A DNA stretch of 53,077 bases from an uncultured Sphingomonas sp. (lineage in GTDB: Bacteria > Pseudomonadota > Alphaproteobacteria > Sphingomonadales > Sphingomonadaceae), in the NCBI GenBank assembly GCA_902806295.1, contig CADCWB010000145.1, forward strand, positions 1 through 53,077. The letters are read 5' to 3'. The notes under the pieces were generated by a model that was given only the letters and a program-made list of their open reading frames with translations, did no database searches and was not told where the DNA came from. Made by a program: the position numbers and the translations under genes. Below are positions 12,534-17,728 of this stretch, in pieces. Position 1 is the stretch's first letter, and every line of letters starts with the position of its first letter.

Positions 12534-14765
12534 ATGTCCGACGACAAGCATGAAGCCTGGAAAGCCCTCGCCGCCAAGGAGGCTCGCGGCGCCGACCTGA
12601 CGCGCGCCACGCCCGAGGGCATCACCCTCAGAACCGTCTACGGCCCCGAGGACGCGGCCGGGATCGACAGCGGCTACCCCGGCGTGGCGCCGTACACCCG
12701 CGGGCCGTACGCGACCATGTACGCGGGTCGGCCGTGGACGATCCGTCAGTACGCCGGCTTCTCCACCGCCGAGGAGAGCAATGCCTTCTACCGCCGCAAC
12801 CTCGCGGCCGGGCAGAAAGGCTTAAGCGTCGCCTTCGACCTCGCCACCCACCGCGGCTACGACAGCGACCATCCGCGCGTGTCGGGCGACGTCGGCAAGG
12901 CGGGCGTGGCGATCGACAGCGTCGAAGACATGAAGCTGCTGTTCGACGGCATCCCGCTGGGCGAGATGAGCGTCAGCATGACCATGAACGGCGCGGTGCT
13001 GCCGATCATGGCCTTCTACATCGTGGCGGGCGAGGAGCAGGGCGTATCCCGCGCCTCGCTGTCGGGCACGATCCAGAACGACATCCTGAAAGAGTTCGCG
13101 GTCCGCAACACCTACATCTACCCGCCCGAACCCTCGATGCGGATCGTGTCGGACATCATCGCCTACACGTCCGCGGAGATGCCGAAGTTCAACAGCATTT
13201 CCATTTCCGGCTACCATATGCACGAGGCCGGGGCGACCGCGGTGCAGGAGCTGGCCTACACGCTGGCCGACGGCATGGCCTATGCCCGCGCCGCGGTGGA
13301 CGCTGGCATGGACCTGGACGCCTTTGCGCCGCGCCTGAGCTTCTTCTTCGGCATCGGCATGAACCTGTTCATGGAGGTGGCGAAGCTGCGCGCCGCGCGG
13401 ACGTTGTGGGGCCGGATCATGACCGACCTCGGCGCCAAGTCCGAAAAGTCGAAGCTGCTCCGCACTCACTGCCAGACCAGCGGCGTGTCGCTGACCGAGC
13501 AGGACCCGTACAACAACATCGTCCGCACCACGGTGGAGGCGCTGGCGGCGGTGCTCGGCGGCACCCAGTCGCTGCACACCAACAGCTTCGACGAAGCGAT
13601 GGCGCTGCCGACCGACTTCTCGGCCCGGATCGCCCGTAACACGCAACTGATCCTGGCGGAGGAGAGTGGGGTCACGGCAGTTGCCGATCCGCTGGGTGGA
13701 AGCTGGTACGTCGAGCGGCTGACCCGCGAGCTGGAGGAGCGGGCCTGGGCCTTGATCGAGGAGGTCGAAGCGCACGGCGGCATGACCAAGGCGGTGGCGG
13801 AAGGCCTGCCGAAGAAGAGGATCGAGGAAGCGGCCGCCGAGCGCCAGGCGAAGGTCGATACGGGCGAGACGGTGATCGTCGGGGTGAACCGCTACCGGTT
13901 GGCGGAAGAGGCTGAGCTCGACATCCTTGAGGTGGACAACGCCAAGGTGCGCGCCGGGCAGATTGAGCGGCTTGGAGCGATGCGGGCGAGCCGGGATGAG
14001 ACGCGGGTGCGGGCGGCGTTGGAGGCGCTCACGGCAGCAGCTCACGCTCGTCCTGAGCGGAGCGAAGCGCAGTCGAAGGGCGTCGACACAGAACAACGCC
14101 CTTCGACTACGGACCGGCGGTCCTCCGCTCAGGAGGAGCGGGGTTTGGGTGGCAATCTGTTAAGCCTCGCGGTCGAAGCCGCCCGCGCCCGCGCCTCACT
14201 GGGCGAAATCTCCGATGCTCTCGAACGCGCGTTCGGCCGCTACGCCACCAAGCCGGAACCGGTGTCGGGCATCTATGGCCAGCGCGCCGACGTGCGGTGG
14301 CGGGAAGCTGTCGAGGGGACGGAAGCCGTCGCCACCCGCCTTGGCCGGAAGCCCCGCATGCTGGTCGCCAAGATGGGCCAGGACGGCCACGACCGCGGCG
14401 CCAACCTGGTGTCGAGCGCGTTCGGCGACCTCGGTTTCGAGATCGTCGCAGGACCCCTGTTCCAGACCCCGCGCGAGGCAGCTGAACTGGCGGTGGAAGC
14501 GCAGGTCGACGTGGTCGGCGCCTCGTCCCTCGCGGCCGGGCACAAGACTCTTATCCCCGAGTTGATCGGCCACCTTCGTGACCTTAACCGGGCGGACATC
14601 AAGGTGGTGGCCGGCGGCGTCATCCCCGCGCAAGATCATGCCGAGTTGCGGGCTGCGGGCGTGCAGGCGATTTTCGGGCCAGGCACCAATCTCGCCGACG
14701 CGGCCGACGAAGTGCTGCGTCTGCTGGGGCACAACAAGCCGCCGATTGAGGAAGCCGCGGAATGA
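12534..14765 (+). CDS. scpA: Methylmalonyl-CoA mutase (B12-dependent) carrying an in-frame ~32 aa insertion
   Basis: [40 protein letters not shown]12 motif DGHDRG. Confidence 0.96.
14045..14140. repeat. 96-nt palindromic element inserted in frame in scpA
   Basis: Outer stem cgctcgtcctgagcggag/ctccgctcaggaggagcg (1 mismatch), inner 13-bp stem agtcgaagggcgt/acgcccttcgact, two side hairpins; encodes [32 protein letters not shown]. Confidence 0.88.
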
Positions 14766-15124
14766 TCAATGAGGAGCAATCGCAGCTTCCTGCCAAGCTG
14801 GAACGCTCGGGCGATTACGACCTCCTGCTGTACGATTATTCCAAGCACCTGCTGTCGCTTGCACGGATCAGCATCGGCGGGGTCATCACGCTGGCGCAAT
14901 CGTCGGTCGGCAAGACGATTCCGACCAGGGATATCGGCGTCGTGGTCATCATCTTGGCACTGAGCGGTGTTGCGGCGCTGTCGTGCACCGCTGCTGTGCT
15001 TCGCGCTCGCAGTGACGGCGCGCCACTAGGCAAAGCCGCGTCCTACATGCATCAGGGCGCGATGGGTTTGCTCGGGGTCGGCTTTGGCTGGTTTCTGATG
15101 AGCTGGCTGAATAATCTATGGTGA
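14762..15124 (+). CDS. Small membrane protein (about 3 hydrophobic segments), paralogue 1
   Basis: ATGA overlap with scp[18 protein letters not shown] motif shared with the next gene. Confidence 0.65.
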
Positions 15125-15251
15125 GCGACCGCATCTGCCGAACTTGATCCTGCAAACGGCTTCCAATCCGGTTTGGAAAGGCAAGCGGACCCTCACCAGG
15201 CCTGGGTTTCGCGGCTCGCCATGGATACGCGGCCTAACAGGGGGGAGCGGT

Positions 15252-15591: not shown

Positions 15592-15637
15592 CGGCCCAGC
15601 TTCCTATCTGCGGTTTGGGCGGCTACGCAGCGGCCCT

Positions 15638-17728
15638 ATGTTCTCCAAGATCCTCATCGCCAACCGTGGCGAAATTGCGTGCCGGGTTATCCGAACGGCC
15701 AAGCGTATGGGCATCAAGACCGTCGCGGTTTATTCCGACGCCGACGCCCGCGCTCCCCACGTCCGCATGGCCGATGAGAGCGTTCGGCTCGGGCCGGCGC
15801 CGGCGGCGCAATCCTACCTTGATGCCGAGCTGATCCTCGACGCAGTGCGCGCGACCGGGGCAGAGGCGGTGCATCCAGGTTATGGCTTCCTGTCCGAACG
15901 CGAGAGCTTCGCACTCGCGCTGAAAGAGGCCGGCGTCGCCTTCATCGGCCCGCCGCCACACGCCATCGCCGCCATGGGCGACAAGATCGAGTCCAAGAAG
16001 CTGGCGCGCGACGCAGGGGTGAACGTCGTGCCGGGTTATCTCGGCGACATTGCGACCACCGATGAAGCGGTGACGATCGCGGCCGACATTGGCTTCCCGG
16101 TGATGATGAAGGCCTCTGCCGGCGGCGGCGGCAAGGGCATGCGGCTGGCCTATAGCGAGCAGGACGTGCGCGAGGGCTTCGAGGCGACCAAGCGCGAAGG
16201 CCTCGCCAGCTTCGGCGACGACCGCGTGTTCATCGAGAAGTTCATCGAGGACCCGCGCCACATCGAGATCCAGGTGCTGGGCGATCAGCACGGCACCATC
16301 CTCTACCTGGGCGAGCGCGAATGCTCGATCCAGCGGCGCCACCAGAAGGTGGTGGAGGAAGCGCCCTCCCCGTTCGTCACTCCGGAGATGCGACGCGCGA
16401 TGGGCGAGCAGGCGGTCGCGCTGGCGCGGGCCGTGGGCTACTATAGCGCGGGCACGGTGGAGCTGATCGTCAACGGCGCGGACGCGTCGGGCCAGGGCTT
16501 CTACTTCCTCGAGATGAATACCCGCCTGCAGGTGGAGCATCCGGTGACCGAGGAGGTCACCGGGCTGGACCTGGTCGAGCAGATGATCCGCGTCGCGGCG
16601 GGCGAGAAGCTGGCGTTCGGGCAAGAGGACGTGCGACTCGACGGCTGGTCGATCGAGAACCGAGTGTATGCGGAGGATCCGTATCGGGGGTTCCTGCCGA
16701 GCACGGGGCGGCTGGTGCGGTACCAGCCGCCGGCCACCATCGACGATCTCCGTTCGTCCCGAGCGCAGTCGAGGGGCGCAGACGAGACGGCAGTTCAACG
16801 CCCCTCGACTGCGCTCGGGACGAACGGCGGAGGTGTTTCGGACTCGATAGTGCGCGTCGACGACGGCGTGTTCGAGGGCGGCGAGGTGTCGATGTTCTAC
16901 GACCCGATGATCGCCAAGCTGATCACCTGGGCCCCGACCCGTGAGGCCGCGATCGACGCGCAGGTCGAGGCGCTGGACGCGTTCGACATCCAGGGCATCG
17001 GCCACAACGTCGATTTCCTGTCCGCGCTGATGCAGCACCCGCGCTTCCGCTCGGGCGAGATCACGACGGGCTTCATCGCCGAGGAATACCCGGACGGCTT
17101 CACCGGCGCCCCGACCGACGAGACGCTGACCGCCGACCTGTCGGCCATCGCGGCCTTGATCGGGTCGGTGCATGAGCGGCGGGCGTCATTAATCGACGGG
17201 CAGCTGAACGGGCCGGTGCCGGTGCCGGAGGATCATGTTGTCCGGCTCGACGGTGGGGCTGAGCACCGCGTGCATTTCGAGCTGGACAAGGTGGTGGTGG
17301 ATGGCGCCGAGCCGCAGGTGCTGGAGGCCGAGTATGAGCCCGGCCAACGGCTCGTCCGGGCGCGCGTCGGCTCGCGGCAGCGGACGGTGCTGGTGGCGAA
17401 GGACGGCCGCTCATGGAAGATGACCACGCGGGGCGCCACGCACCGGGTGACGGTGATGACCCCGCTGGTGGCCGAACTCGCGCGGCACATGATCGAGAAG
17501 GTCGCGCCCGACCTGTCCCGCTATCTCCTGGCACCGATGCCCGGTCTGCTGACCCGGCTGGACGTCAAGGCTGGCGACAAAGTCGAGGCCGGCCAGCCGA
17601 TCGCGGTGGTCGAGGCGATGAAGATGGAGAACATCCTCCGCGCGGAGAAAAGCGCGACGGTGAAGGCGACCCCGGTAGGTGCGGGCGAGAGCCTCAGCGT
17701 CGATCAGGTGATCGTGGAGTTCGAGTGA
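15638..17728 (+). CDS. pccA: Propionyl-CoA carboxylase alpha subunit (biotin carboxylase + BCCP) carrying an in-frame insertion
   Basis: KILIANRGEIA, HPGYGFLSE, GGGGKGMR, ECSIQRRHQK, EMNTRLQVEH, biotinylation motif EAMKM. Confidence 0.95.
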   Translation: MFSKILIANRGEIACRVIRTAKRMGIKTVAVYSDADARAPHVRMADESVRLGPAPAAQSYLDAELILDAVRATGAEAVHPGYGFLSERESFALALKEAGVAFIGPPPHAIAAMGDKIESKKLARDAGVNVVPGYLGDIATTDEAVTIAADIGFPVMMKASAGGGGKGMRLAYSEQDVREGFEATKREGLASFGDDRVFIEKFIEDPRHIEIQVLGDQHGTILYLGERECSIQRRHQKVVEEAPSPFVTPEMRRAMGEQAVALARAVGYYSAGTVELIVNGADASGQGFYFLEMNTRLQVEHPVTEEVTGLDLVEQMIRVAAGEKLAFGQEDVRLDGWSIENRVYAEDPYRGFLPSTGRLVRYQPPATIDDLRSSRAQSRGADETAVQRPSTALGTNGGGVSDSIVRVDDGVFEGGEVSMFYDPMIAKLITWAPTREAAIDAQVEALDAFDIQGIGHNVDFLSALMQHPRFRSGEITTGFIAEEYPDGFTGAPTDETLTADLSAIAALIGSVHERRASLIDGQLNGPVPVPEDHVVRLDGGAEHRVHFELDKVVVDGAEPQVLEAEYEPGQRLVRARVGSRQRTVLVAKDGRSWKMTTRGATHRVTVMTPLVAELARHMIEKVAPDLSRYLLAPMPGLLTRLDVKAGDKVEAGQPIAVVEAMKMENILRAEKSATVKATPVGAGESLSVDQVIVEFE
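16750..16827. repeat. 78-nt palindromic element (perfect 29-bp inverted repeat, 20-nt loop) inserted in frame in pccA
   Basis: ccgttcgtcccgagcgcagtcgaggggcg-N20-cgcccctcgactgcgctcgggacgaacgg; encodes RSSRAQSRGADETAVQRPSTALGTNG. Confidence 0.92.

Follow-up and report, generated by a model that had tools for sequence, protein, structure and literature searches.

The window considered here is a 53,077-nt stretch of DNA (contig C145) from an uncultured sphingomonad, genome G000, whose assembly spans 1.83 Mb at 66% G+C and is 80% complete. On the plus strand, it carries scpA (12525..14765), which encodes a methylmalonyl-CoA mutase of 746 aa scoring above the NCBIfam cut-off, and pccA (15638..17728), which encodes the 696-aa propionyl-CoA carboxylase alpha subunit, a biotin-carboxylase protein assigned by profile and by its top solved-structure relative, itself a propionyl-CoA carboxylase alpha. 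The closest named relative of the C-terminal part of ScpA (84% identity) comes from a Sphingomicrobium sp. genome, which on sequence makes Sphingomicrobium in the GTDB sense the likely genus. Each gene contains a variable loop that is a recurrent landing site for palindromic repeats: residues 503-542 of ScpA (14031..14150, plus strand), with 40 codons here and 7 in empty alleles, and residues 363-404 of PccA (16724..16849, plus strand), with 42 codons here, as opposed to 11-13 or 21 when empty within the genus and 8-12 in out-groups. Both loops hold hairpins of one family, designated F0. The chief interest of the locus lies in the reuse of the same loops by several hairpin families among relatives and in a testable link between the hairpins and a small nuclease.

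Both F0 elements are head-to-head hairpin dimers, annotated without strand. The scpA copy (14045..14140), which lies in frame, combines an inner stem, an outer stem broken by a single mismatch, and a pair of small nested side hairpins, while the pccA copy (16750..16827) is a perfect 29-bp stem topped by a loop of 20 nt. Folding gives z-scores of -12.5 and -8.8 for the two copies, 0 of 200 shuffled sequences reaching the same stability. A preliminary description of this DNA had recognized homologous, in-frame hairpins in the two genes, and this is borne out, both open reading frames (ORFs) remaining open. It had also stressed that the element lengths (96 and 78 nt) are multiples of three; the frame is indeed kept, but what counts is the net gain relative to an empty allele, namely +99 nt in scpA (120 vs 21 nt) and +90 nt in pccA (126 vs the commonest 36 nt), the hairpin lengths being dependent on where boundaries are drawn. 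The shared reading frame that it noted holds for the inner stems and fails for the outer left arms, and F0 inserts among relatives use all three frames. Assembly artefact is unlikely because contigs from two studies bridge the scpA insert and a related genome has a pccA copy: contigs X1, X2, and X3 (one study, possibly the source) cross the former with 0 differences and contig X5 (another study) with 9, while genome G024 has, at that pccA site, a copy of 91% identity. No piece bridging the whole pccA hairpin was found among the public-run contigs listed.

The same loops were read across the genus. Of 271 genomes, 199 matched the C-terminal part of ScpA and 150 matches were listed; 130 of the listed stretches, chosen by similarity outside the loops, were retrieved and joined to earlier loci, leaving out the unpublished genome G020 and the out-groups, and loops of >=75 nt were counted as filled. 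By this measure, 50 of 150 genomes have an insert in the ScpA loop, 45 of them in frame, and 52 of 132 have one in the PccA loop, of which 50 are in frame; over both loops, 95 of the 102 inserts keep the frame. The 7 out-of-frame inserts come from 5 genomes, and assembly error is their likely cause because 4 of these 5 have other frameshifts in the same stretch; pseudogenization was among the readings rejected. Elsewhere in PccA and in the last 204 residues of ScpA, the largest insertion is 16 aa (126-151 genomes per position), the N-terminal part of ScpA having been compared in about 22 genomes only. Orthologues carry empty alleles at both loops, in line with the insertions supposed in the preliminary description, which had overlooked that relatives fill these loops with several families. 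By k-mers, the 102 inserts form five clusters of 36, 25, 21, 13, and 7 members, and five families is a lower bound since two F0 and three F3 assignments are doubtful by peptide. Every hairpin family in the loops folds strongly. The window elements belong to F0, whereas peptides of cluster F3 match CGTC-1 (dRS3/RPE-6) peptides in the supplement of PMC3733652. Named records of Sphingomonas, Novosphingobium, and Allosphingosinicella show inserts at the two sites as well; among 49 more distant ScpA loci, 2 have long loops, neither with family k-mers. Both loops could be read in 128 genomes, with 29 having both filled, 63 both empty, and 36 one filled, a joint pattern consistent with a load set at the level of lineages. 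Within the ScpA loop, the right arm ends <=1 base from the same point, just before an invariant Asn codon, in 14 of 21 F0 inserts, while the left boundary varies.

The inserts had been thought to create new loops. Both sites, however, are already short, length-variable loops in solved relatives (1REQ 519-527, with a longer loop in 3N6R). Modelled with AlphaFold, the inserts have low confidence and the flanking helices or strands stay confident: the ScpA insert is a low-confidence stretch between two confident helices, and the PccA insert, between two strands, has predicted local distance difference test scores (pLDDT) <50 at model residues 367-393. These models fit inserts that sit in tolerated loops, and any peptides so added would likely be near-neutral passengers. 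Conserved non-repeat extensions also occur at such sites (63 nt in the PccA loop of 12 congeners; 87-108 nt in the IleRS loop at 11 of 28 loci), which therefore tolerate ordinary insertions too.

The two enzymes share a pathway, and the preliminary description had drawn a link from this that does not hold: F0 is in frame in G000 also in IleRS and in the linkers of the E2 acyltransferase and the pyruvate dehydrogenase (PDH) E1-beta subunit. Since IleRS, ValRS, and the E2 linker behave alike among relatives, the shared pathway is best seen as coincidental. Filled alleles number 10 of 28 at IleRS, 4 of 30 at ValRS, and 12 of 29 at the E2 linker, each including G000; these counts derive from k-mer matches (one by peptide), and the ValRS figure comes from a restricted sample, just 34 of 81 genomes having reached the threshold. 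Other families in frame in G000 are F2 in ValRS and F1 near the end of ThiC. These in-frame hairpins, together with another F0 copy that is possibly present at the start of a MetH gene, where the start codon is uncertain, lie on contigs C147, C194, C233, C3, C112, and C49 (loci L314, L315, L316, L327, L321, and L322) and emerged from 16 candidate reading frames inspected, 7 of which were scanned with Pfam. A k-mer catalogue made from the relatives' inserts detects 55 repeat loci in G000, as opposed to 3 in a codon-shuffled control; F0 accounts for 21 loci, both intergenic and in frame, and the further genomic copies anticipated earlier are thus real. Additional copies of an NTS-like type, missed by the catalogue, were seen separately. 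An Rfam scan gave just chance hairpin matches to miRNA models, all under gathering scores, and a loose motif scan for repeats was too noisy, the loosest motif performing no better than on shuffles.

Occupancy and family identity part ways on a tree of 139 genomes, built from the same operon by a quick search with the loops excluded (45 of 136 inner branches weak). Family state requires 42 changes for 47 filled tips at ScpA (43.8 ± 1.7 with shuffled labels) and 44 for 52 filled tips at PccA (49.3 ± 1.6), while filled/empty changes number 31 and 29, respectively, vs 39.1 and 41.5 shuffled. Occupancy is therefore clustered by lineage, and family identity, being near random, barely so. The closest tree neighbor of G000, G071, has both sites empty, and G073 has F3 in PccA; short decayed remnants of inserts also exist among relatives. 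Such a succession of resident families fits either replacement of the occupant or fast loss and refilling, and the loops, which probably tolerate inserts well enough to be occupied repeatedly, are likely refilled by whichever hairpin family is active in the lineage.

A resident hairpin might itself be the preferred break point, cut by its cognate nuclease or through cruciform processing, with repair putting another family in directly; a filled loop would then stay filled while its family changes. This proposal is possible, although the balance of evidence leans away from it, and it sharpens the nuclease-based account given below rather than excluding it. A direct-swap model outperforms one without swaps by 5.0 log units at ScpA (log-likelihood -125.6 vs -130.6) and by 12.7 at PccA (-145.5 vs -158.2), and a hidden hot/cold lineage model without swaps attains an equal fit but needs 82% and 96% occupancy when hot. 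Of the sister-tip pairs with both members filled, 4 of 7 and 6 of 9 hold different families. Next to filled ScpA and PccA loops, rare codons are also about twice as frequent (29/264 vs 40/588 and 30/282 vs 21/432), an excess confined to the nearest three codons on each side with none further out. This excess is a lead only, as it is not reproduced at IleRS or ValRS (10 and 3 filled alleles); a third-position A+T halo near filled loops is weak and of little effect, and synonymous divergence beside them is modestly higher. In addition, the fit of the models does not separate direct replacement from fast loss and refilling, and the tree comes from the same operon, with weak inner branches and kin that are not independent.

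A candidate enzyme partner for F0 is encoded in relatives. In a sample comprising the best 30 loci from 121 genus genomes and 10 picked by hand, small GIY-YIG proteins split into two clades of 29 and 11 members (n = 40). F0 flanks 27 of the 29 and none of the 11, and is absent about 1 kb away. The F0-flanked clade matches the UPF0213 structures 1ZG2 and 1YWL (E 1e-16, vs 1e-4 for the other clade), and 3 of 11 members of the second clade are flanked by cluster F3. At locus L080, inverted arms enclose the GIY-YIG gene, and each agrees with the pccA arms at 28/29 positions; by sequence, the pccA insert looks like the L080 unit with the nuclease gene swapped for a 20-nt loop. The preliminary description had envisaged a GIY-YIG gene with copies of the repeat on its flanks; relatives do carry one, of the UPF0213/YhbQ type, and none was found in the 80%-complete G000 assembly. 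Across the class, F0 flanks 10 of 20 homologous nuclease loci. Within the genus, the nuclease is found in 97 of 271 genomes, an F0 match in 120, and both in 63 (odds ratio 3.8), tallies in which kin are not independent and up to five unpublished genomes are included. The nuclease accompanies 23 of 31 genomes with an F0-filled loop vs 13 of 81 with no filled loop read. A UPF0213/YhbQ-type GIY-YIG nuclease is thus the likely, if still putative, agent of F0 mobilization.

Some UPF0213-type genes read on through the downstream repeat into frames of 350-390 codons (L064, L069, L070, L072, L076, L078, L082, and L089), possibly as repeat-mediated fusions to the next gene. A small nuclease gene is present in 7 of 130 congener operon stretches (L205, L231, L232, L258, L274, L275, and L281), 6 of them from the second GIY-YIG clade and 1 of DUF559.

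The association with nuclease genes could be explained otherwise, if the repeats were classical MITEs (transposable elements of the miniature inverted-repeat type) moved in trans by a transposase and the nuclease genes were passengers that had landed between repeats. Under this explanation, which appears improbable, it is understandable that the arms are terminal inverted repeats and that no nuclease is seen in 57 of the 120 genomes matching F0. It is less clear why target duplication was not found (the longest word shared by the flanks averages 2.57 vs 2.72 in controls, n = 21 F0 inserts), a feature that the preliminary description had thought worth seeking, or why each nuclease clade pairs with its own repeat family, with fixed spacing at 4 of 6 loci measured. 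No Y1 (RAYT-type) transposase was found in the 80%-complete G000 assembly, other transposase families not having been searched, and the survey of CGTC repeats detected no tie between them and a transposase (PMC3733652). The former designation of F0 as an RPE-like "coding MITE" therefore stands in part. F0 is a non-autonomous palindromic family with intergenic and in-frame copies, and it shares terminal inverted repeats with a longer enzyme-coding element (the L080 arms, 28/29), whereas the strict MITE label is not supported, because no target duplication was seen at the F0 inserts and no Y1 transposase in the assembly.

The pairing of nuclease and repeat may extend further. In G000, both DUF559 genes (L092 and L093, on contigs C73 and C170) have C-rich repeats of families F2 and F1 beside them, which suggests a third nuclease-repeat pairing; no description of it was found in the literature searched. 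A broader and more speculative synthesis, which we entertain with some doubt, would treat a few tolerant loops as revolving doors for selfish hairpins, whose residents are re-cut and swapped. UPF0213-type GIY-YIG, Ssn-like GIY-YIG, and DUF559 proteins would each drive their own family through a shared, transposase-free cut-and-capture route, rewriting 25-50 residues of core enzymes at about the pace of speciation.

Three stem pair swaps distinguish the scpA hairpin (14047/14138, 14054/14131, and 14077/14102) from the pccA hairpin (16753/16824, 16760/16817, and 16773/16804), as had been observed before. The conclusion formerly drawn from them, that mRNA structure is conserved, is not upheld: two of the three are also paired in nuclease-gene arms about 300 nt apart, where arm positions 11 and 24 co-change (in 12 pairs of arms, not all from separate loci). 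Because of this co-change around nuclease genes, these two positions mark repeat subtypes, and the apparent covariation, judged on sequence, mostly reflects subtype variation and does not demonstrate selection on mRNA structure. Orthologous pccA copies in G000 and G024 are separated by one paired change. Template switching in near-palindromes yields paired changes, and it explains this one as well as RNA selection does.

The latter idea has a more general form, in which the inserts are themselves selected because a stable mRNA hairpin of any sequence, placed at a boundary between domains, adjusts how fast translation runs or how stable the transcript is. The very high occupancy, the strong folding of all families, and the paired change between G000 and G024 are in its favor, as are RNA-library contigs that match parts of both inserts with 0 differences, although these are contigs only and no proof of transcription. 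On the other hand, the insert is absent from about two-thirds of congeners, including the closest relative G071; remnants decay; family, length, and frame are free to vary; and paired changes also stem from subtypes and template switching. Selection on the hairpins is accordingly an unlikely explanation.

The account that we consider probable is that the elements are non-autonomous hairpin dimers spread by the nicking activity of cognate small nucleases and by repair capture, filtered by selection into tolerant loops, and turned over fast. The nuclease would nick single-stranded DNA beside its hairpin, as in related Ssn nucleases, and repair of the break would capture a hairpin dimer. Purifying selection would then clear nearly all coding insertions save in-frame ones in tolerant loops, and a filled loop would turn over fast. 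Both mRNA-hairpin selection and transposase-driven MITEs fit worse than this account, against which several points nevertheless count. We know of no case of a UPF0213 protein acting on an F0 hairpin, and a nuclease brings no obvious strand-joining step. A tblastn search for small GIY-YIG proteins found no F0-type nuclease gene in the 80%-complete G000 assembly, where the single GIY-YIG match lies within a 651-aa frame that is likely UvrC, and the 57 F0-bearing genomes with no nuclease raise the same difficulty. An occupancy of about one-third, at a target some tens of bases long, is more than tolerance alone readily explains given the density in G000 of about 0.03 elements per kb, and a further factor (re-targeting, slow loss, or selection) is called for. 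That the inserts are translated is a presumption.

The surroundings of the two genes hold a few further features. A small hairpin just upstream of scpA (12496-12521) looks, by eye, like the repeats that adjoin genes of the second GIY-YIG clade at L071 and L090. The scpA-pccA gap, which ranges from about 100 to 850 nt across congeners (10th-90th percentile), contains two small hydrophobic ORFs (14762-15124 and 15307-15591); the first has no NCBIfam match and has homologues in 7 of 130 congener stretches. Farther along, an intergenic F4 dimer (29955-30055; folding z-score -5.1) lies between two divergent genes, one of which is presumably a polyhydroxyalkanoate (PHA) synthase by sequence.

How Rickettsia palindromic elements (RPEs) and CGTC repetitive extragenic palindromes (REPs) spread has been an open question since their description, and the 2013 survey reported no dedicated transposase (PMC3733652). 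A candidate enzyme can now be named for one repeat family in a free-living bacterial genus. Loops filled in about one-third of the species examined constitute natural reporter sites, at which mobility, target choice, and fitness cost become testable. Long in-frame inserts at one orthologous position can, moreover, be independent, a point that bears on signature indels used in phylogeny and on the search for enzyme positions that tolerate insertions.

Palindromic repeats lying in frame are well known from RPEs, which, like F0, are palindromic, occur between genes and in frame within conserved enzymes, and are apparently tolerated (PMC10969869 and PMC2229807, in the sections available). F0 differs in that its dimers are shorter (78-96 nt), that it uses all three frames where each RPE family has one conserved peptide, and that it inhabits free-living sphingomonads with a candidate nuclease partner; the reuse of one loop by several families is not described for RPEs in those sections of the two papers. 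For CGTC REPs, in-frame copies are on record in sphingomonad genes, among them that of an Erythrobacter IleRS (PMC3733652, Di Nocera et al. 2013, available text). These alphaproteobacterial hairpin repeats are mostly head-to-head dimers with no linked tyrosine transposase, as is F0 in the 80%-complete assembly. On inspection against the description in that text, F0 falls outside the unpaired terminal tag, 8-9 bp stem, and 4-5 nt loop of families 1-4. The same text gives insertion at one site for recB of two Xanthomonas species only, other inserts being at different sites. The literature searched yielded no report of F0 itself, of a UPF0213 association for it, or of several families reusing a single loop.

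Ssn systems come closest with respect to the enzyme. Each pairs a small GIY-YIG gene, coding for a single domain, with a hairpin repeat of its own on either side (NTS/SRM); they are proposed to be IS-like, with nucleases that cut single-stranded DNA sequence-specifically beside their hairpin (PMC11893778, Chenal et al. 2025, main text). F0 shares the hairpin-bracketed small GIY-YIG gene, yet its partner belongs to a separate clade close to UPF0213 structures, and F0 does not fit the SRM consensus by eye against the printed pattern; the main text of that paper does not name UPF0213, YhbQ, or cd10456, and in-frame insertions are not treated in the sections available. REP/REPIN elements with RAYTs offer a parallel in scattered hairpin dimers and an enzyme gene with copies of the repeat around it, the F0 partner being a GIY-YIG nuclease and not an HUH Y1 transposase. 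F0 thus works like an RPE or a CGTC REP, yet on the membership features tested it stands apart from both families.

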